Source: Candidatus Woesearchaeota archaeon (GTDB lineage Archaea; Nanobdellota; Nanobdellia; Woesearchaeales; B72-G16). From it: DNA of 41,119 bases. Location: positions 1 to 41,119 of the forward strand of contig QMQO01000008.1 of assembly GCA_003650545.1 (NCBI GenBank), written 5' to 3'. Positions 6,001 to 22,265 of this stretch are shown here, piece after piece. The notes beneath the pieces were generated by a model. It did no database searches, was not told the DNA's origin, and saw nothing but the letters and a program-made list of their open reading frames with translations. Numbering within the stretch: the first letter of the stretch is position 1; each line of letters starts with the position of its first letter. The translations under genes and the position numbers were made by a program.

Positions 6001-9000
6001 TCAGAATCAACCAAACAAGATTGTTGTTCAGTACACCTCAAACCAAAATATTGTGAACATGTTGCTCCACAATCTACATCTGTTTCAAGAGCAGGGTCTA
6101 AGATTTTTTCATCAGTACAATCTGCTATAGGGACTATACAGACTCCATAATCACCTCCTGCTGATTTATCGCACCTCAAACCAGTTTCACAATCAGTATC
6201 ATCATAGCAGCCTTCACCGCCAGGACACCTATCTGGACATATATCACCGCCGCAATCAATGCCAGTTTCATCCTGGTTTTGAATACCATCGCTACAAGTT
6301 TCTTGTATCTCAAAACTATGGGTTACACCATCTGCATCAATCCATGTCTCTGCTGGTCCAGAAACACCGAATGATGGAGTGTCACCAACATCTATGTCAA
6401 TTGTTTTGGCAACATAATTAGGATCTTTATAACCTAAACTTATGTCAACATCTTTCATACCTAAACAAGTTCCAGTTGGTTGTAAAAATTTCAGCTTAAC
6501 AGGACCCAGATTATTATTCAAGGTTCCATCATAAAACTTAGGCGAAGGAAATCCTGTTGTAAAATAAGCGTACATATCAGTTACGCCTGGGAATAACTCA
6601 CTCCTAACCTCTACTTTCCAATTTGCACATCCTGCCAGAGGATTGCCTGCTATCTGTCCTTTTGTGACATCTTTCACCCACAATGCCCTGCCTGGTCCAC
6701 CTGCACCAACACCAAATTGAGTAAAATGTGTTGTTGTAAATTTAAGCTGGCCTGGGACGCTTCTGTCAATTGGTGATTCAAACCATTCTTTCCATTCTCC
6801 TGCAACAGGATCATACACAAGAATAGTCAATTGGTTTGGATCAGGATAAGCATTGGTATCATAATACAACACTATCTCAACAGGGCTGTTGAAGTCTGTT
6901 TCAACAGGTCCGAATGAATATGTATTAATCGGTGTTATGTCAACAGCACCTAGTGAAAATGTTGGCTCGCTGCCTGTGTATTCTGCTGTTATAGGAGTAT
7001 CATAAGACAAAGCATTTGCTGGGATGTTAACATCTGCCTGTGCAGTTGTATCGCCTGACTTAAGCGTAATTGTACCTCCTGTGCTGGCCTCAACATAATC
7101 CTGCGCACTATCGCCAGTGGACACACTACAATCACCAAAGCAAATATCACAAGCATCTCCTATGCCATCATTATCAGAATCTGCTTGATCAAAATTGCTT
7201 TCTTTAGGGCAGTTATCATCCACATCCAAAACACCATCATTATCATCATCTGGATCGCACTTGTCTCCTGCTGTGTCTATTGCTATTTCTTCAGGGGTTA
7301 AAGCCTTTTTCAGGATTCTTACTTCGTCTATATAATAGCTATGGTTGCAAGATAAACCCGTAGTATATTCTGTTCTTCCGATTGTAAGAGGTTCATTCAT
7401 AGAAACATAGCAAGTTGTTATTCCTGTGCTCGTTGCAACTTCATTGCCATCTACATAAAGCTTTAACTCTCCTGTTGCAACATTTCTGACAACAGCTATA
7501 TGATACCACCTATTCGTTTCAGTTATGATATCAAGAGCATCCACCACAGCGCTGCAGGTACCTGCAGATATTTGAAATTCTATTTCTCCTCCGCTTGTAC
7601 CAGTTACCGTACCCCAACGAGCAATTTGCCATCCGTCTCCTCCTGTTCCTTTGTAGATAAGAATTAGATCTTCTTCAAGATCTTCAAACTTTGCCCAAAA
7701 TTCAAGAGTGAAGTTACCATCTTCAGGATCAAACAACGGACTCGTAGATCCCTCTGCATACACATCACCAATGAATGAAAGTGCTGATCCAAACTTTCCT
7801 TGTGTCCATGTTGCTCCATTAATTGTAAGATCGCTGTTCTGTGCTTCATCTTTAGAAATCGAACCTGCTCCTTCGTTTAGGTGCCACAATCCTGTTGTAT
7901 AACTTGTTACCCCTCGCTCGCCGCCATCTGTATCGATCTGTGATGGATTATATACATAGGGACAGTTATCAACACTATATTCAAAGCCATCACAATCATT
8001 ATCATCAGAACAATCCGGACCTGTAGAAGCAGAGGTCAAGAAGGGTGTGTAATCAACCTGGCCTGTATTTTCGATGATTCCTGCTTCAATCTGCACTGGG
8101 TCTGTTGTGCCCCACCAATTATATTCTGCGACAATAGTATCATGTTGGTCATTTTTTAAATTAGCGTATGAGTTGCTGTATATGTTATTATAGGATATAA
8201 CATTGTCTGTTGAACCTCCACTCAAAGAAACTCCTACTGTTAAACCAGTCATGTCATTATAATCTATAATATTATTATTTGCACCTGACATACCAATTCC
8301 AAAAGAATTTGTCCAAGTACTGGAAAAACTATTGTGTCTGACAAGATTATTATCTCCATACAACATTAAGCCTGTTGAAACATCTCCAAGAATTATATTA
8401 TTAATAATTTTATTATGATCACTATTTGGATTTTTAAAGTCTCCTATTGACATGCCCCATCCTTGATCAGCTATTCTTATATAATTTCCATCGATTGTGT
8501 TATAATATGAATCGTACATCCGGACGCCTTTTCCAAAATTATATATCTTATTGTTTGATATTTCTGCATAATTGTTCGCAAATATATCAATGCCTGGAGA
8601 ACCATAGTTTATTCCTGAATAATAAAATTCATTTCCAGAAATTTTATTATCAACAACTTGCGGATGGCCTGTATAAGCCCTTATGAATACTCCTGTATAT
8701 TTAATATTCGTGAAATTATTATTAATGATTGAATTTGAATTTGCATTTATTATATCTACACCTGCATTAAAATTATCTATGTTGCAATTTTTCAAGATGA
8801 AATTATCATTGTACACTAATATTCCTTTTGAATATGTTGTCCCAGGACCTGTTATTTTATGTCCTTGACAATCTATAGTAATTTTATCAGCATGTACCTC
8901 AAAACAATAATCCCCAGAAGTAGAGATATCGCTTGTTAAAACATACTCAGTATTGCTGGTTGTTAAAGTAATACCACAGCTTGATAAAATAATAGGACAA

Positions 9001-10922: not shown

Positions 10923-11861
10923 CTAGATTTTTCTTATCTTTGCTACAAAAAATCCTCCTGTGTTATTGTCTTGCGGCCAAATCCTTAAACAATGTTTGAC
11001 TCCTTTATTATAACTCTCTCCTTCAAACCCCATTACAGCTGGACTGTGATTTATATTAAGTTTGATTTTCTCTATCCTAGCTTCTTGATGGTTATCTAAT
11101 AAATAAGATATAACTCCTTCATCTTCTTCTGGCTCTAATGAACATGTAGAATAGACAAGAGTCCCGCCTTTTTTTAGATTTTTGCAGAAAACTGTCTCTA
11201 GAATAGATTTCTGGTTTCTAGATAATCTTTTTATTAAAGCTGGATTCCACATACTAACTGTTTTTAGTGATTTTCTTATAGTACCTGTACCTGAACATGG
11301 AGCATCGACTAAAATCTTATTGAACTGTTGCTTAAAGCTGCGGGCATCCATTTGGGTAACTATTACATTTGTACAACCACATCGCTGAAGGTTAATACCA
11401 AGAGCTGCAAGACGTTTGCCTGTCAGGTCATTTGCAACTATGATGCCTCTGTTCTTCATTATAGCAGAGAGTTGTGTTGTCTTGCTTCCTGGTGCTGCAC
11501 AACAGTCTAAAACTATATCAGTTGGTTTTGGGTTAAGAACAACTGGAGGGATCATGCTAACTGCTTCTTGAACATAGATATAACCGAGAGAATGCTCGGC
11601 AGTGTTACCAATATCGCGTCTACCAGTTTCATGGGAAAAGTAAAATCCTTCCTTACACCAAGGTATCTGCTTTAGGTGCCAGTCTTTCATCCTTCCTTTT
11701 ATCCTATTGACACTAATTTTGATTGTGTTAATTCTTATCGATCTATCGAGGTAGCTTAAAGAATATTGTTTGAATTTTTCAAACTCTGTCAATTTGGAGT
11801 AACGTTCTATAAATGTGGGTTTAAACTCTAGTTCTGCTGCGTTAGGGTTGATTTTAGGCAT
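10923..11861 (-). CDS. NOL1/NOP2/Sun (RsmB/RsmF family) RNA cytosine-C5 methyltransferase
   Basis: Motifs YVQE, LDCCAAPGSKT, LVDAPCSGTG, LVYSTCS..PEEDE and GFFVA; both catalytic Cys present. Confidence 0.96.
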   Translation of the reverse strand: MPKINPNAAELEFKPTFIERYSKLTEFEKFKQYSLSYLDRSIRINTIKISVNRIKGRMKDWHLKQIPWCKEGFYFSHETGRRDIGNTAEHSLGYIYVQEAVSMIPPVVLNPKPTDIVLDCCAAPGSKTTQLSAIMKNRGIIVANDLTGKRLAALGINLQRCGCTNVIVTQMDARSFKQQFNKILVDAPCSGTGTIRKSLKTVSMWNPALIKRLSRNQKSILETVFCKNLKKGGTLVYSTCSLEPEEDEGVISYLLDNHQEARIEKIKLNINHSPAVMGFEGESYNKGVKHCLRIWPQDNNTGGFFVAKIRKI

Positions 11862-12226
11862 GCTACTATGGTTATTACATATATTAATATATGTTGTGGT
11901 TAATGAAATTAATAAAAGCTAGAAGCACTAACTATAACATTATATATAACATAGGAAAATATAACATAGAGAAAGATCTTAGCTAGATGATTATAAACAA
12001 AACTAGACACAATAATAAACAGGTTATAAAATTATAATAAATAAGTAAATAATTGAAAAATAAATAAAACAGGTAGATGATAGACAGAGTAACAGGAAAT
12101 TATTAATTTGCATTTTAAGGGTGAAGACTCTAAGTGTTACATCTTGGCAAACATTACAAATAATAATTTTTGATTTAAATAACCTTTAGAGTTATTTCTA
12201 AGAATTTAACAGTATTGCTTATTCCA

Positions 12227-13894
12227 CTAAACTTTCTTGACCATATAAGGTCCCTGTTTTTTATACTTTTGTTTGCGATAATATTCCCGCACACCAACAC
12301 CAGAAATAATGACAATCTTATCCTTATCATGCAGCTTTGCAATTTTCTCTGCTAGCTTTAACAACCTCTTACCAAGACCACGGTGTTGAATATAGGCTTT
12401 CTTTCCAAGAGCAGCAGGTTCACCGTAAACATGTAACTCTCGTATTAATGCTGTTCCTTTAGTTATCTCTTTTCTTAACTGAACTGATGGGAAACGCATC
12501 CTGCAAAAGCCAAGCAAAGATTCGCCACTTATAGCTTCAATAAAAAATTCTCTACCATGGCTAGCTTCATATTCTATAGTATTATAGGTTATCTTTCCTA
12601 ATGTCTTTAAAGTTCTGCCAACCTCTCTACATCTGATGCAACTACATTTAATATTGCGAAGCTTCATTAACGAATGAATGTACTGACGGAGATTCGTCTT
12701 ATTAACACCTGCTACAATTTTATAACTTGGGATATCACGCTGCACTCGCATGATTCTGCAATATTTAGGAACAAATTTTTTGAAGTCTGCAATTAAAGAA
12801 GCAGCTTGTTTTGTTGTTAATGGTTTAAATTTGCCTTTCTTGTAAAGCTGATATAACTTTGTACCTTTTATTACTATACACGGATAAATTTTTAGCATAT
12901 CTGGACGATAGTCTGAGTCAGAAAAAAGCAGTTTCATTCCAGCCAAATCATAACTTCTATTCACAAATAAGCCAGGCATGTAATGAAAATTGAGTTTAAA
13001 CCCAAGATCTTTCAAGGTTCGGATAGAGTCTATATTATCTTGTACTGTGTGACCTCGTTTAATCTTTTTTAGAACCTCGTCATAGACAGATTGTATGCCT
13101 AGTTCAATGCGGGTACAACCTAGATTCAATAAAAAATTACCGTGCTCAAGTGTTCCGTAGTCTGCACGGGTTTCAATTGTTAAGCCGACACATTTCACAA
13201 CCGATGTTTCATTTAGTTTTTGTTCTCGCTTAAGAGATTTTTTATTTTTATTTTTTTCTTTCAGAGCTTTTTTATGGATGGACGCAACCCTTTCTTCTGA
13301 ACTTACTTTTCCCGGAAGTTCAAAAAATTGCTTGAATTTTTTTATATTAATAACACCGTTTTTAAAGAAGATTCTTGAGAAATCATTCATCGCTTTAAAA
13401 CAGTTTTTTATAAATTCTTGTTGGTAATTTCTAGGAAAGCTCGGAAATGTTCCCCCCATTATTATTAACTCAATTTTCTCAGGTAAGTGTCCTGTGACAA
13501 TGTATTGCTCCAATCTATTAAAGATTTGCAAGTAAGGATCAAATTTATTTCTTAAAGCACGCATTGTTGCTGGTTCATAACCAGTGTAAGATTTTGGGAT
13601 CCCTTTTTTAGTATAGCTAGGGCACATTATGCAGCTACCATGGGGACACTCGTATGGGGCTGACATAACTGCGATGATTGCGACTCCAGAAATTGTACGA
13701 GTTGGTTTTGTTAATAGTTGTTTTTTTAGTTTTGGTATATCTTTTTCAGAGGCATTAAGAAGGATCTCAACATCTGTTGGAGGATATTTCAGATTATATT
13801 TTTTACAAAGTTTTAACTTTAGTCTGTTGATTTTGTCTTTGCTGAGTTTTTTTGATTTTATTTCTTCTATCAGTTCATTGTAATAGGATTGCAT
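12227..13894 (-). CDS. elp3: Elp3 tRNA U34 carboxymethyltransferase (radical SAM + GNAT)
   Basis: RTISGVA, CPHGSCIMCP, PKSYTG.EP, MGGTF, RVQRDIP, C.CIRCRE, RELHVYG, QHRGLG, ISGVGVREYY. Confidence 0.97.
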   Translation of the reverse strand: MQSYYNELIEEIKSKKLSKDKINRLKLKLCKKYNLKYPPTDVEILLNASEKDIPKLKKQLLTKPTRTISGVAIIAVMSAPYECPHGSCIMCPSYTKKGIPKSYTGYEPATMRALRNKFDPYLQIFNRLEQYIVTGHLPEKIELIIMGGTFPSFPRNYQQEFIKNCFKAMNDFSRIFFKNGVINIKKFKQFFELPGKVSSEERVASIHKKALKEKNKNKKSLKREQKLNETSVVKCVGLTIETRADYGTLEHGNFLLNLGCTRIELGIQSVYDEVLKKIKRGHTVQDNIDSIRTLKDLGFKLNFHYMPGLFVNRSYDLAGMKLLFSDSDYRPDMLKIYPCIVIKGTKLYQLYKKGKFKPLTTKQAASLIADFKKFVPKYCRIMRVQRDIPSYKIVAGVNKTNLRQYIHSLMKLRNIKCSCIRCREVGRTLKTLGKITYNTIEYEASHGREFFIEAISGESLLGFCRMRFPSVQLRKEITKGTALIRELHVYGEPAALGKKAYIQHRGLGKRLLKLAEKIAKLHDKDKIVIISGVGVREYYRKQKYKKQGPYMVKKV

Positions 13895-13915
13895 AATATA
13901 AAGAATAAAAGAAGA

Positions 13916-13923
13916 TTTATAAA
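13916..13923 (-). promoter_or_regulatory. Archaeal TATA box for elp3 (probably a leaderless mRNA)
   Basis: TTTATAAA 22-29 nt upstream of the ATG at 13894; no SD motif. Confidence 0.65.
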
Positions 13924-14232
13924 GTTATTCAAACTAGTTTGAAATATTTTTATTTTATTTATTTGTGTTTTTCTTCAAAGTACAATCTTGTGATTGGACA
14001 CAACATCTGATTGTTATTGATTCTATTTTGTTATAAGGATTTTAATGCTGAAGGAGTAGAGGAAAGATATTGAAAGGAATATTAAGAATATTTTTGAGAA
14101 GAAAATATTGAGCACTAATATTCAAATACATGTTCAAATATATTTTCTGTTTCCTAAAAAGATTAACGAGATCATTAAGTTACAATTTTTTAATCTCTGA
14201 TGACTTGTTATAGTCTCTGAGAATTAAATTTT

Positions 14233-16179
14233 TCATATCACAGGCACTTCGATGTGGCGTTTACCGATCTTGAAGCCATAGATATAAATGTATTGCCAGA
14301 ATAAGCCCCACTTACGCTCTACCTTGACTGCAAAACCTGCTTTTCTAAAAAAAGACGCGATCTTCTCGTCAGTCTCGAGCCACTCGACATTCCTGATTAG
14401 ATGGAAGAATCTATCATATTCGACAACAAAGATCTTACCACCTATTGGAAGACGTTTATACCAACCTTGCATAACAGCGTCTATATTCTGCACGGTGCTT
14501 AATGTTCCAACAGATACTACAGCGTCTATTTCAGGGATAACTGGGTGTACACGCTTGTGATGCTGCTCGTCATATAAAAACTTCACGTGTGTATGACCTT
14601 TTTTGGTAACTCGGTGATGTGCTATCTTTATCTGACCCATTGAGTGACTAGTTGCATAAACCTTACCACTTGGCAACACAGCTTTAGCTAGATGCAATGT
14701 GAGCGTTCCAACATTACAACCATATTCTAGTATCTTTTTTCCACGAATAGAACCAATCAAAGTGATTAGTTTTTTTCTCATTCCCCATGGAAATAAAACG
14801 TTTTCAAGCAGATAAGTTAAAAACGCAAGCCTGTCGCTAAATGCTCTTATAACACTGGGGTTATAATATACATTAACCAAAAGATAGATTGGCAAACAAA
14901 AACCGATCAAAGAGATTGTTACAAGGAAAACGAATAACGCGTGCTCTACAATTTTAACCCAGAGGAATATTAAAACAATATTTATCATTACAATCAAGAC
15001 AGGGATTATTTTTCCTAGAGGTGCTTTATAATGACGAGGATGATCTGGCATCTTATAGCGCAATATGGTTACAGATAAAATGACCAAAGAGTACATTGTA
15101 AGCTCTATAGGAACTAACATTTCAACCAATGTCCTTATCGAACCTATACCTAATATGACTATGCCACAAGTAAGAACAGCCATGAAGAGTATCGCCTTAT
15201 ACGGGGTTTTGTATTTCTGGTGTATGTTTGAAAATGTTCTTGGAAAAAGTTTATCGCGAGCAAGCGCTAGTACCAAGCGAGGAGAAGAAACTGCCTGGCT
15301 TGCTAGGCCACCTATTAATGCGACATATACTATTAATGAAAATATTATTAAAAGTAGACCAGAATAACCAATACTTGTTGCAACAGTTTTGAGAGGAGCT
15401 GCTGCCTCACCAAGGACCTTTGGGTGTATTACAGTTAAAAGAATAAAACTAAAAACTAACGAGAAGATAATGCTGATAACAGTACCCAATATAATCGCCT
15501 TTGGGATAACCTTTTCTGCATTTTCTGTTTCTTCTGCTAAAAAAGTTATGTCTTCCCAGCCAAAGAACATCTCTGAGATAAAAAATATTGTGACAAATAA
15601 TGTTCCAATAGAAAATACTGGGGGAAAGAAAGGAACTAGATTTCTTAGATTTACATGGAATGCTCCAGGTAAAATTATCATAAGGAGCGTGCCAAGCATT
15701 ATAAAAGAGAAGATATTAACTAGCCATGCGCTTTCCTTGACTCCTTTATAAACGATGCTATAAAACCCGATTATGAACATTATGCTTATAGCCATAACAA
15801 TCAAGTTCGCTGTAAGCGTCTCGAAAGGAATTATGTATTTGATTGCTGCAACTATCAATAACGAAGATGTTACTCCATAAGCTAAAATAGCAGTCCAGCC
15901 AATTATAAAACTTGGGAAGCGACCATAAGCTTGCTTACAATACTCGTATGTTCCACCAACCTTAGGAAACATGCTAACTAGTTCTGCAAAACACATCGAT
16001 ATATATATTGATAAAAAGCCAACAATACCTAAAGCTAATAGAGATGCACCCCAAGAAAGTCTGGCAGCTATAGGTGGCAGGAACAGCACCGAGCCTCCTA
16101 TAAGAGAGTTCAAAGTCATAAAGAGTACCATTCTAAAACTAAGTGCTCTCTTCAATTTTGGCTGTTGCTTTTCTTCCAT
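14233..16179 (-). CDS. APC-family amino acid permease fused to a C-terminal class I SAM-dependent methyltransferase-like domain
   Basis: LKRALS, IGGSVLFLP, FAELVSMFPKVGGTYEY, GWE...LAEE, R...ALARD.LFP, TPY.AI with about 12 TMs, followed by soluble KKILEYGCNVG (MTase motif I) and LPIGGKIFVVE. Confidence 0.9.
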   Translation of the reverse strand: MEEKQQPKLKRALSFRMVLFMTLNSLIGGSVLFLPPIAARLSWGASLLALGIVGFLSIYISMCFAELVSMFPKVGGTYEYCKQAYGRFPSFIIGWTAILAYGVTSSLLIVAAIKYIIPFETLTANLIVMAISIMFIIGFYSIVYKGVKESAWLVNIFSFIMLGTLLMIILPGAFHVNLRNLVPFFPPVFSIGTLFVTIFFISEMFFGWEDITFLAEETENAEKVIPKAIILGTVISIIFSLVFSFILLTVIHPKVLGEAAAPLKTVATSIGYSGLLLIIFSLIVYVALIGGLASQAVSSPRLVLALARDKLFPRTFSNIHQKYKTPYKAILFMAVLTCGIVILGIGSIRTLVEMLVPIELTMYSLVILSVTILRYKMPDHPRHYKAPLGKIIPVLIVMINIVLIFLWVKIVEHALFVFLVTISLIGFCLPIYLLVNVYYNPSVIRAFSDRLAFLTYLLENVLFPWGMRKKLITLIGSIRGKKILEYGCNVGTLTLHLAKAVLPSGKVYATSHSMGQIKIAHHRVTKKGHTHVKFLYDEQHHKRVHPVIPEIDAVVSVGTLSTVQNIDAVMQGWYKRLPIGGKIFVVEYDRFFHLIRNVEWLETDEKIASFFRKAGFAVKVERKWGLFWQYIYIYGFKIGKRHIEVPVI

Positions 16180-20659: not shown

Positions 20660-20755
20660 TTAAATAAAAACTCTAATTTTTCAAAACAGAAATGTTGTAT
20701 TAGAAAAATTAGCAAAAAAGGTTTTAAACATCACATCAATACACCAATAGAAATC

Positions 20756-20763
20756 TTTATAAA
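20756..20763 (+). promoter_or_regulatory. TATA box (with purine-rich BRE-like AGAAA upstream) of the tRNA-Trp gene
   Basis: TTTATAAA 25-32 nt upstream of tRNA G1 (20788). Confidence 0.75.
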
Positions 20764-20802
20764 GCCACAATTATTAATTCGGATTAAGGGGCTGTAGTAT
20801 AA

Positions 20803-20823
20803 ACCTTAATAAATAGGGTACAA
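20803..20823 (+). other. tRNA intron 1 (position ~15/16, 21 nt)
   Basis: Central helix GTAT/GTAC, bulges AA|A and AA|T, inner helix CCT/AGG. Confidence 0.7.
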
Positions 20824-20833
20824 TCTGGCTAGA

Positions 20834-20866
20834 AGGAATAGGAGCGACATGCTCTCTTCCGAGTTG
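20834..20866 (+). other. tRNA intron 2 (position ~23/24, 33 nt)
   Basis: Inner hairpin GGAA..GGAGC/GCTCT..TTCC; relaxed central helix GCTA/GAGT. Exact boundary uncertain by 1-2 nt. Confidence 0.6.
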
Positions 20867-20880
20867 ATGGGTGGCTCCAG

Positions 20881-20956
20881 GATTGGAGCGAGGAGCTACA
20901 GTCTACTGTAGCTGTGACTTTAGCTATGGTCTGTTGAAGCTTGCTTCAATGAAGAG
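20881..20956 (+). ncRNA. tRNA intron 3 (canonical 37/38, 76 nt) with degenerate box C/D guide features
   Basis: Central helix CTCC/GAAG (one mismatch), inner helix ATTGGAGC/GCTTCAAT. C-like GCGAGGA 20888-20894; D-like TTGA 20934-20937 preceded by TGGTCTG, which is complementary to tRNA positions 35-41. Confidence 0.8.
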
Positions 20957-20964
20957 ACCACCAG

Positions 20965-20995
20965 ATGTTAACACAACCCTGTGTTAATAGGCGTA
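20965..20995 (+). other. tRNA intron 4 (position 45/46, 31 nt)
   Basis: 10-bp inner helix TGTTAACACA/TGTGTTAATA; central helix CACC/GGCG (one mismatch); bulges AG|A and TA|A. Confidence 0.78.
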
Positions 20996-21008
20996 ATCTG
21001 GGTTCAAA

Positions 21009-21042
21009 ATTGGTAAAGTGTTATTCATTTTGCTTGTGAAAG
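21009..21042 (+). other. tRNA intron 5 (position 59/60, 34 nt)
   Basis: Perfect central helix TTCA/TGAA, bulges AA|A and AG|T, inner helix GGTAAAGTG/CATTTTGCT, outer helix formed by the T stem. Confidence 0.85.
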
Positions 21043-21080
21043 TCCCAGCAGCCCCATTACACCCCTTAATTTAAAAGAGG

Positions 21081-22265
21081 TTGAAATTGGTTTTCATTAA
21101 AGGAAAACGCAAAAGTAAAAGTCCATTAGGAGCTATTGCCACATTAATAGGTACAACAATTGGAGCTGGAATTTTAGGAATACCTTATGTTGTAGCAAAA
21201 TCAGGCTTACTTTATGGCTTATTCCTTATTATTTTTATTGGGGTAATAATACTGTTTGTCAATCTATTTTTTGGTGAAATTGTTTTAAGGACTAAAGGCA
21301 ATCATCAAGTACCGGGATATGCTGAAAAATATACTGGAAAATTTGGAAAATTCTTTATCGTGCTTTCGTTTATTATTGGTGTATATGGCGCAGTCATTGC
21401 TTATACAATCAAAAGCGGAGAGTTTCTTATGTATGTTTTTAATGGATCTAACTCGTTTCCATACAGCCTTGCGTTCTTTGCTGTTATGTCTGTTGTAATC
21501 TATTTTGGCATAAGGGCTGTTGAACACTCCGAACTCGTCCTTGTCGGTTCATTCATATTAGTTATTCTAATCGTTTTCTTTTTAGGGCTCAAATCAGTTG
21601 ACCTCAGCAATTTTGACCTTGTTCATCCAAAGTATCTTTTCCTGCCTTATGGTGTTATTCTATTCGCCTTTTTAGCTACAGGTTCTATCCCTGAGATGAA
21701 GGAACAGCTAACTCATTATAGAAAGAAGATTAAAAATGCTATTATCTTAGGAACCATCGTACCAATCATAGTCTATCTTGCTTTTGCAATCGTTGTAGTG
21801 GGTATTACTGGAAAAGATACGACAACAGGAGCAATTGAAGGTCTTGCGAATGTCATCAAGAATCCTACGGTTATTAAAGGAGCATTTATTTTTGGTATAC
21901 TTGCTATGGCAACTAGTTTTATTGCTCTTGGCAGAGCACTCAAAGAAATGTACATGTTTGATTTTGGTTTTAAAAAATTTCATTCTTATCTTTTTACAGT
22001 TATGATACCTGCATTGTTGTTTTTGTTGCTTTATTTTACTGGCAATAGCAGCTTTATAAATATTTTGGGGATAGCGGGGGCTATATCTGGTGGGATTGCA
22101 GGAGCAATTATTGTATGGATGTATATAAGAGCTAAAAGGTTAGGTGATAGACAGCCAGAGTTTAGTATAAAGTTAAATAAGCCATTTGCTTGGTTTATCA
22201 TTCTGGTTTTTATTATTGGGGTTATATTAAAACTCTTAGAAGTGTTTGGAGTTTTGAGGTTTTAG
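21081..22265 (+). CDS. Aromatic amino acid permease family (TyrP/Mtr-like, HAAAP) transporter
   Basis: LIGTTIGAGILGIPY, LPYGVILFAF, IPEMKE, ATSFI and about 11 TMs. True start may be TTG 21087 after GAGGT. Confidence 0.85.
   Translation: MKLVFIKGKRKSKSPLGAIATLIGTTIGAGILGIPYVVAKSGLLYGLFLIIFIGVIILFVNLFFGEIVLRTKGNHQVPGYAEKYTGKFGKFFIVLSFIIGVYGAVIAYTIKSGEFLMYVFNGSNSFPYSLAFFAVMSVVIYFGIRAVEHSELVLVGSFILVILIVFFLGLKSVDLSNFDLVHPKYLFLPYGVILFAFLATGSIPEMKEQLTHYRKKIKNAIILGTIVPIIVYLAFAIVVVGITGKDTTTGAIEGLANVIKNPTVIKGAFIFGILAMATSFIALGRALKEMYMFDFGFKKFHSYLFTVMIPALLFLLLYFTGNSSFINILGIAGAISGGIAGAIIVWMYIRAKRLGDRQPEFSIKLNKPFAWFIILVFIIGVILKLLEVFGVLRF

Follow-up and report, generated by a model that had tools for sequence, protein, structure and literature searches.

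The 269-nt span at positions 20788-21056 (+) of contig QMQO01000008.1 reads as a gene for tRNA-Trp(CCA), divided by five inserts into six exons. It lies within the window (the whole stretch of DNA that was analysed, 41,119 nt, from the Candidatus Woesearchaeota archaeon assembly GCA_003650545.1), and we consider it, with a probability of about 0.85, to be a functional tRNA-Trp gene of a Woesearchaeota-like DPANN genome, the transcript of which would be spliced by EndA and RtcB. The exons (15, 10, 14, 8, 13 and 14 nt in order) sum up to 74 nt, and the introns (21, 33, 76, 31 and 34 nt) to 195 of the 269 nt, i.e. 72%. The cut sites correspond to Sprinzl positions 15/16, 23/24, 37/38, 45/46 and 59/60. 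In the canonical archaeal bulge-helix-bulge (BHB) motif each strand contributes a 4-nt segment to the central helix, followed by a 3-nt bulge that is cut after its second base; the layout of the gene, with the helices of each motif, is as follows:

20788..20802 (+): exon 1, positions 1-15, with the 5' acceptor strand, the 5' strand of the D stem and the start of the D loop
20803..20823 (+): intron 1 at 15/16, 21 nt; central helix GTAT/GTAC (4/4), inner helix of 3 bp, no outer helix
20824..20833 (+): exon 2, positions 16-23, 10 nt, with the remaining D loop and the start of the 3' strand of the D stem, collinear with the one-intron orthologues
20834..20866 (+): intron 2 at 23/24, 33 nt; central helix GCTA/GAGT (3/4), inner helix GGAA/TTCC, weak outer helix of at most 5 bp including wobbles
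20867..20880 (+): exon 3, positions 24-37, with the 5' strand of the anticodon stem and the anticodon CCA
20881..20956 (+): intron 3 at the canonical site 37/38, 76 nt; central helix CTCC/GAAG (3/4), outer helix formed by the anticodon stem, inner helix of at least 8 bp
20957..20964 (+): exon 4, positions 38-45, an 8-nt micro-exon with the 3' strand of the anticodon stem
20965..20995 (+): intron 4 at 45/46, 31 nt; central helix CACC/GGCG (3/4) using positions 40-43, inner helix of 9-10 bp, no outer helix
20996..21008 (+): exon 5, positions 46-59, with the variable region, the 5' strand of the T stem and most of the T loop
21009..21042 (+): intron 5 at 59/60, 34 nt; central helix TTCA/TGAA (4/4), outer helix formed by the 5-bp T stem
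21043..21056 (+): exon 6, positions 60-73, with the 3' strand of the T stem, the 3' acceptor strand and the discriminator A

The 74-nt product, joined in silico, is called tRNA-Trp(cca) by ARAGORN and is identical at 63 of its 74 positions, without gaps, to the spliced tRNA-Trp of G018, a relative from the same order. All four stems are intact, the anticodon CCA, the discriminator A and the T loop are retained, and both the acceptor stem (7/7 pairs, the 5' strand of exon 1 with 21049-21055) and the anticodon stem exhibit compensatory changes relative to G018; the CCA tail is not encoded. In a spliced alignment the core of tRNA-Trp scores 59 at this locus, versus 36-37 for the reversed-query control. 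Re-cutting of the span and the ARAGORN call on the product bear out an earlier note, which had proposed from the letters of the sequence the identity of the gene, the sites and lengths of the inserts, the sizes of the exons and the intron share of 72%. Its cut positions are right as standard tRNA positions, not as plain counts along the 74-mer: taken in the latter sense, they worsen the D arm and alter the variable region, and the standard tRNA numbering was kept.

The unspliced locus is detected neither by ARAGORN, as the note had expected of a standard finder, nor by Rfam at the gathering threshold, both applied to the window, while an Rfam search of positions 20700-21150 with E-values up to 10 returned three chance-level matches, none of them to a tRNA. 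The gene is missed by the standard finders because its five introns split it into six short pieces. The Rfam tRNA model detected 10 of 11 one-intron tRNA-Trp genes and none of the 12 with at least two introns.

The comparison with relatives of the same order provides the strongest evidence for a five-intron tRNA-Trp gene. A search with the locus in 40 same-order relatives gave matches in three genomes, at 75-80% identity, which were confined to the 37/38 intron and the adjoining sequence; the tRNA-Trp gene of G018 possesses a single intron of 79 nt and is scored by Rfam at 42.7 bits. When 400 other genomes of the order were probed with the 37/38 intron, 28 matched (75-84% identity in relatives), and their genes were delineated by spliced alignment, with the spliced tRNA of G018 minus its acceptor stem as the query and long gaps allowed. 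An alignment with the full-length query had produced false 'introns' beside acceptor stems that differ from the reference, and was redone without the acceptor stem. The six exons align gap-free to the tRNA-Trp of all 28 relatives, which carry one intron in 13 cases, two in 10 and three in 5, compared to five in the gene under study. The acceptor 7-mers, which lie outside the query, pair 7/7 in 28 of the 29 genes, and their pairs covary (GGGGACA/TGTCCCC, GGGGCTG/CAGCCCC, GGGGTCG/CGACCCC). ARAGORN accepts 28 of the 29 spliced products as tRNA-Trp; in the exception, L008, the T-loop intron was misplaced in that alignment, and another alignment put a 30-nt intron there.

As the survey of relatives suggested by the note reveals, introns occur at recurrent sites in these 28 genomes, and the five sites used here are found among them. 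At 15/16, six relatives (L004, L019, L021, L024, L027, L029) exhibit the same helix, GTAT/GTAC. At 23/24, an intron is present in L019 and L029, with a perfect GCTA/TAGC helix, and at 45/46, L003 possesses a 31-nt intron with the helix CAGC/GCTG (4/4), which differs from CACC/GGCG by one compensatory pair change. The site 59/60 is occupied in five relatives, and its helix covaries: TTCA/TGAA in four genes, TTCG/CGAA in L004 and TCCG/CGGA in L026. Other sites are not used by this gene, namely 53/54 in three relatives, also with a covarying helix (TCTG/CAGG versus TCAG/CTGG), and single cases near 17/18, 49 and 56/57. Two of the relatives, L023 (G374, one of the three with an intron at 53/54) and L029 (G209), come from unpublished genomes; the other claims rest on public genomes.

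The BHB geometry, compared also with the A-I pair rule of canonical pre-tRNAs, fits all five introns, with a 4/4 central helix in introns 1 and 5 and a 3/4 helix in introns 2, 3 and 4; the estimate of zero to one mismatch per central helix in the earlier note thus holds throughout. At random places of the genome a 4/4 central helix was obtained in 71 of 1405 cases and a helix of at least 3/4 in 421 of 1405. Both flanking helices are present in introns 2 and 3, while the inner helix of intron 5 amounts to 1 bp by strict count, followed by a mismatch and a longer stem. The C34-A mismatch in the helix of intron 3 is found in 24 of the 29 genes, among them genes with one intron, which have to be spliced. 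The intron boundaries were set by homology, and slides of 1-3 nt leave the product unchanged. A strict motif scan (4/4 central helix, both flanking helices of at least 2 bp) returned 13 candidates, none of which is one of the five introns, and a relaxed scan returned far too many candidates to be informative alone. The minimum-energy fold of the whole precursor contains the acceptor stem, the T stem with the motif of intron 5, the anticodon stem with the helix of intron 3, and hairpins in introns 1 and 4.

A single gene for EndA was identified in the genome. It encodes a protein of 176 aa in which PF01974 (111 bits) and PF02778 are combined, and a search for paralogues in the genome with E-values up to 10 returned none. 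The sequence aligns gap-free with the homotetrameric enzyme from M. jannaschii (1a79 in the PDB) over residues 5-176, without an extra loop; the best single-domain match is the catalytic subunit from N. equitans, compared to which it has 6 residues fewer before the catalytic His. Y112, H122 and K153, which we take to be the catalytic triad by analogy to the M. jannaschii enzyme, are invariant across six genomes. In five relatives, two of them with complete genomes, EndA is likewise encoded by one copy of the same length, with a single one-residue gap between them, and the counts of RF00005 matches in these genomes span 1 to 32. The earlier note had postulated an EndA of broad specificity; an EndA gene is indeed present, but its sequence, of the plain single-subunit type with no extra loop, does not reveal such breadth. 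According to PMC5829648, only the heterotetrameric and three-unit forms of EndA cut non-canonical introns, and the single-subunit enzymes of DPANN are associated with more tRNA disruption.

RtcB is also encoded (456.7 bits; contig C10 of this genome, G000, positions 11502-14324 (-), loci L092/L093), in a single frame of 1008 aa. Within this frame, Pfam positions 1-50 and 45-426 are split by an in-frame insert of ~1.5 kb, which, judging from the sequence, looks like an intein. As for EndA, 27 of the 80 closest loci (L094-L173) are labelled 'uncultured Methanosarcinales' in third-party assemblies; their EndA is 60-72% identical to the Woesearchaeota-like one described here, and the labels therefore look wrong.

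The tRNA-Trp gene is not an isolated case. In the genome (1.64 Mb, 133 contigs, 85% complete) 7 tRNAs are found with RF00005 and likewise 7 with ARAGORN run with the intron option. A spliced-alignment scan of both strands with 59 reference tRNAs from G131 and G018 (reversed-query controls 34-39) identified one locus for the core of tRNA-Trp, with the score of 59, and the next best at 42. By this sequence search, the locus described here is the only tRNA-Trp gene found in the genome, and the note's question about another one is answered by the lack of any above background in the 85%-complete assembly. Among 37 candidate loci scoring at least 47, the spliced product was accepted by ARAGORN for 19, of which 14 have at least two introns. 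These 19 loci contain 41 intron-size gaps, and together with tRNA-Trp there are 46 introns in 20 genes, where the borders of the 19 loci were not curated singly and some of the 11-14-nt gaps may have been introduced by the alignment. Well supported among these are the genes for Leu(UAG), Ser(GCU) and Gly(UCC), with three introns each and central helices of 4/4 throughout; the genes for Ile(GAU), Ala(UGC), Val(UAC) and Arg(UCU) also have three each, and several genes have two. Altogether, the central helix is 4/4 in 21 of the 72 candidate introns of the genome, versus the proportion given above for random places. Multi-intron tRNA loci found by spliced alignment and ARAGORN include, among others:

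C1:~54110-54272 of G000: multi-intron tRNA locus
C49:~7060-7299 of G000: multi-intron tRNA locus
C12:~20920-21075 of G000: multi-intron tRNA locus
C1:~87090-87251 of G000: multi-intron tRNA locus

The suggestion in the note that some 'missing' tRNAs of DPANN genomes may be hidden by introns is supported by these 19 further loci, recovered beside 7 matches to RF00005. In relatives, the number of RF00005 matches is 1 in G035 (1.5 Mb, 81% complete), 14 in G016 (complete, single contig), 10 in G042 and 28-32 in G018 and G131; hidden tRNA genes thus seem to be common in the order, but unevenly distributed. For comparison, the complete genomes assessed in PMC8450103 reach at most 71 introns, in 46 genes, and PMC5829648 mentions that the incomplete tRNA sets of new DPANN genomes point to disrupted genes not yet identified. 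The introns of tRNA-Trp show no sign of spreading: a blastn-short search of all five against the genome returned self matches only at E <0.01, i.e. nothing that would point to an intron family or to recent transposition.

The alignment of 24 introns at 37/38 across the order reveals a common architecture. From the 5' end, the intron contains TGGAGC (paired with GCTTCA close to the 3' end), a GATGAG box and a short covarying hairpin, followed by a second GATGA-like box (in most introns), a variable stretch and GGTCTGTTG. GATGAG is present in 22 of the 24 introns, GGTCTGTTG in 24 and TTGA, which resembles a D box, in 23. In the gene under study the latter is preceded by a conserved element complementary to the tRNA itself:

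20927..20937 (+): TGGTCTG element with TTGA; TGGTCTG (20927-20933) has complementarity to positions 35-41 of the tRNA

Counted upstream from TTGA, the fifth base pairs with position 39; for a guide, a complementarity of 7 nt is short. As described in PMC11408192, the intron of tRNA-Trp in Haloferax and other Euryarchaeota contains a box C/D RNA by which the methylation of C34 and U39 is directed, and the genome analysed here encodes fibrillarin. Based on the order of the boxes, the complementarity that places position N+5 at 39, the precedent of Haloferax and the presence of fibrillarin, we predict with moderate confidence that the 37/38 intron is a box C/D-like guide for position 39. It resembles the Haloferax-type intron in its length, in the GAUGA-type boxes and in the N+5 target, position 39 (PMC11408192), and differs from it in that no C34 guide is recognisable, the D box is UUGA instead of CUGA, and a short hairpin replaces the D' guide. 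Indeed, neither a guide for C34 nor a D' box is evident in the alignment of the 24 introns, and Rfam families of C/D RNAs match the intron, here and in G018, with E-values of 1 or worse.

Another motif inside the 37/38 intron, at 20904-20936 (+), resembles a nested BHB: it combines a central helix ACAG/CTGT (4/4), an outer helix of 5 bp and an inner helix of 10 bp, with 33 nt enclosed. It overlaps the C/D-like boxes and could be either the guide RNA in its folded form or an additional site for the endonuclease.

Several features of the locus weigh against the interpretation as a functional five-intron gene spliced by EndA, and a part of them would fit a decaying pseudogene, with the working tRNA-Trp encoded in the 15% of the genome that is missing from the assembly. 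One mismatch each is present in three of the five central helices, of which those at 23/24 and 45/46 are imperfect in this gene and perfect in relatives. Both GATGA boxes of the 37/38 intron, corresponding to the C and C' boxes, are altered, with GAGGAG (20890-20895) for GATGAG and TGTGAC (20913-20919) for the second box, which may mean that the guide RNA is losing its function in this lineage. No T run that could serve as a terminator is found directly 3' of the gene (21057-21085), unlike in three relatives, and the completeness of 85% leaves room for a second tRNA-Trp. The D stem of the product consists of one Watson-Crick pair and two G-U pairs only, a weakness that is conserved in 29 of the 29 tRNA-Trp genes. 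A pseudogene is nevertheless distinctly improbable, given that the stems of the spliced product are intact, with compensatory changes in the acceptor and anticodon stems relative to G018, that the anticodon, the discriminator and the T loop are kept, and that there is no rival Trp locus above background; moreover, the multi-intron build is the rule for the tRNAs of this genome. Or perhaps the inserts are chimeric joins that arose in assembly or binning, as the source is a metagenome-assembled genome (MAG) in 133 contigs? This explanation is effectively refuted by a second assembly, from a public run (maybe of the same sample), in which 651 nt are identical with 0 differences on an 8.4-kb contig with the depth of ~42, and by the recurrence of inserts at these positions in genomes from other families that were assembled independently.

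The remaining difficulties concern the mode of processing. Introns 1 and 4, at 15/16 and 45/46, lack the outer helix and possess only the inner one. Positions 40-43 take part both in the central helix of intron 4 and in the 3' strand of the anticodon stem, i.e. the outer helix of intron 3, so that the motif of intron 3 and that of intron 4 cannot form simultaneously; introns at both 37/38 and 45/46 also occur in the relative G005. The sole EndA is of the single-subunit kind that PMC5829648 deems unable to cut non-canonical introns. One could therefore envisage a functional gene in which the relaxed inserts (15/16, 23/24, 45/46) are cut elsewhere, later, or with a helper factor, and the missing outer helices, the 3/4 helices at 23/24 and 45/46, the slidable boundaries, the exclusion between introns 3 and 4 and an EndA that, compared with the strict type from M. 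jannaschii, has no specificity loop would all agree with it. We regard such a deviation as very improbable: the same cut positions yield 4/4 helices in relatives, and the product has to be the collinear 74-mer in order to match the one-intron orthologues. To our knowledge, moreover, no other pathway excises inserts of 20-35 nt from archaeal tRNAs.

Thus, the interpretation that we favour remains a functional tRNA-Trp(CCA) gene processed by EndA and RtcB, and its transcription, cleavage, ligation, splicing order and methylation can be pictured, as predictions from the sequence, in the following way. The gene is situated in a 421-nt gap between open reading frames (ORFs), overlapped by no ORF of at least 80 aa, and is preceded by a probable archaeal promoter:

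20756..20763 (+): TATA-like box TTTATAAA, read from the sequence, with its centre ~28 nt upstream of the mature 5' end

A/T-rich, TATA-like runs are present at comparable upstream distances in relatives. Transcription from this box would probably yield a precursor of ~270 nt. EndA would then remove the five introns by cutting in the paired 3-nt bulges that flank the 4-bp helices, each central helix being formed by two 4-nt segments, one of which lies two bases ahead of the 5' cut and the other two bases ahead of the 3' cut. As a consequence of the mutually exclusive motifs, the precursor would have to refold between the cuts of introns 3 and 4. RtcB is predicted to join the six exons, 8-15 nt long, into the 74-nt tRNA, to which CCA would be added afterwards. 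The 37/38 intron is probably ancestral in the order, with its guide element directing 2'-O-methylation of position 39, while the other four introns may be later gains at sites used repeatedly in the order. Downstream, the next ORF (21081-22265, +) begins 25 nt after the end of the gene; this short distance and the lack of a T run make read-through or co-transcription possible.

If correct, these findings raise the observed ceiling from three to five introns per tRNA gene, with exons down to 8 nt, and tRNA finders therefore work with limits that are too low for this group; according to PMC8450103, the iterations of tRNAscan-SE cover 'two or three introns'. A 2026 preprint (10.64898/2026.05.13.725050) found no tRNA-Trp in 30 out of 123 complete genomes of Woesearchaeales and does not distinguish between loss, split genes and detection failure; multi-intron genes are a ready candidate explanation. 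The tRNA counts serve both as a quality criterion for MAGs and as an argument for the host dependence of DPANN, and if most tRNAs are hidden, inferences of both kinds are biased. The EndA from this genome lends itself to studies of specificity, since an enzyme of a supposedly strict type is combined here with a heavy load of non-canonical introns. We propose, only tentatively and with some doubt, that certain Woesearchaeota-like lineages (this genome and G035) possess the most fragmented tRNA sets known, with more than two introns per gene on average, up to five in one gene and exons as small as 8 nt, and process them with a plain single-subunit EndA devoid of all the loops that have so far been connected with broad specificity. 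Were that so, relaxed and mutually exclusive BHB motifs would have to be dealt with in a manner not yet described, e.g. by ordered refolding or with a helper factor, and it would also account for the tRNA-Trp 'missing' from the 30 of 123 complete Woesearchaeales genomes.

Archaeal tRNA genes with several introns are already known, and five introns per gene are not in print as far as the accessible literature goes. PMC8450103 and PMC4033280 give three introns as the maximum per archaeal tRNA gene, which agrees with the figure in the earlier note (about three), and the literature searched, which covers few subscription journals, yielded no account of an archaeal tRNA gene with at least four introns. 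The closest known counterpart is provided by Thermoproteales (Pyrobaculum, Thermofilum, Caldivirga), in which several BHB or relaxed-BHB introns may be present in one gene, at both canonical and non-canonical sites (in the D loop, the variable region and the T loop), processing relies on EndA and RtcB, the genes are missed by standard finders, and neighbouring motifs may need ordered removal (PMC8450103). The gene described here differs from them in having five introns, against a stated maximum of three (PMC8450103, PMC4033280), and in its host, a member of DPANN and not a crenarchaeon. In addition, its EndA is a single subunit of 176 aa without the crenarchaeal loop, not of the heterotetrameric type, and unlike the intron transposition families described for Thermoproteales in PMC4033280, its introns have no paralogues in the genome. 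A similar degree of disruption is seen in the Asgard lineages Atabeyarchaeia and Freyarchaeia, where 92-95% of tRNA genes bear introns, many of them non-canonical, and more than half have several; these belong, however, to a different superphylum, and their maximum per gene lies outside the comparison of three with five (PMC11291895). In the red alga Cyanidioschyzon merolae, too, a single gene may contain BHB-type introns in its D arm, at 37/38 and in its T loop, and ordered removal was demonstrated by reverse transcription PCR, but there the genes are nuclear and eukaryotic, have at most three introns and are in some cases permuted (PMC3728597). Within the DPANN superphylum, disrupted tRNA genes are shared with Nanoarchaeum equitans, which has split tRNAs, and with ARMAN-2, which has a three-unit EndA. 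Unlike the split tRNAs of the former, the gene from the present genome is contiguous and would be spliced in cis rather than in trans, and unlike the three-unit enzyme of the latter, its EndA is a single short subunit.

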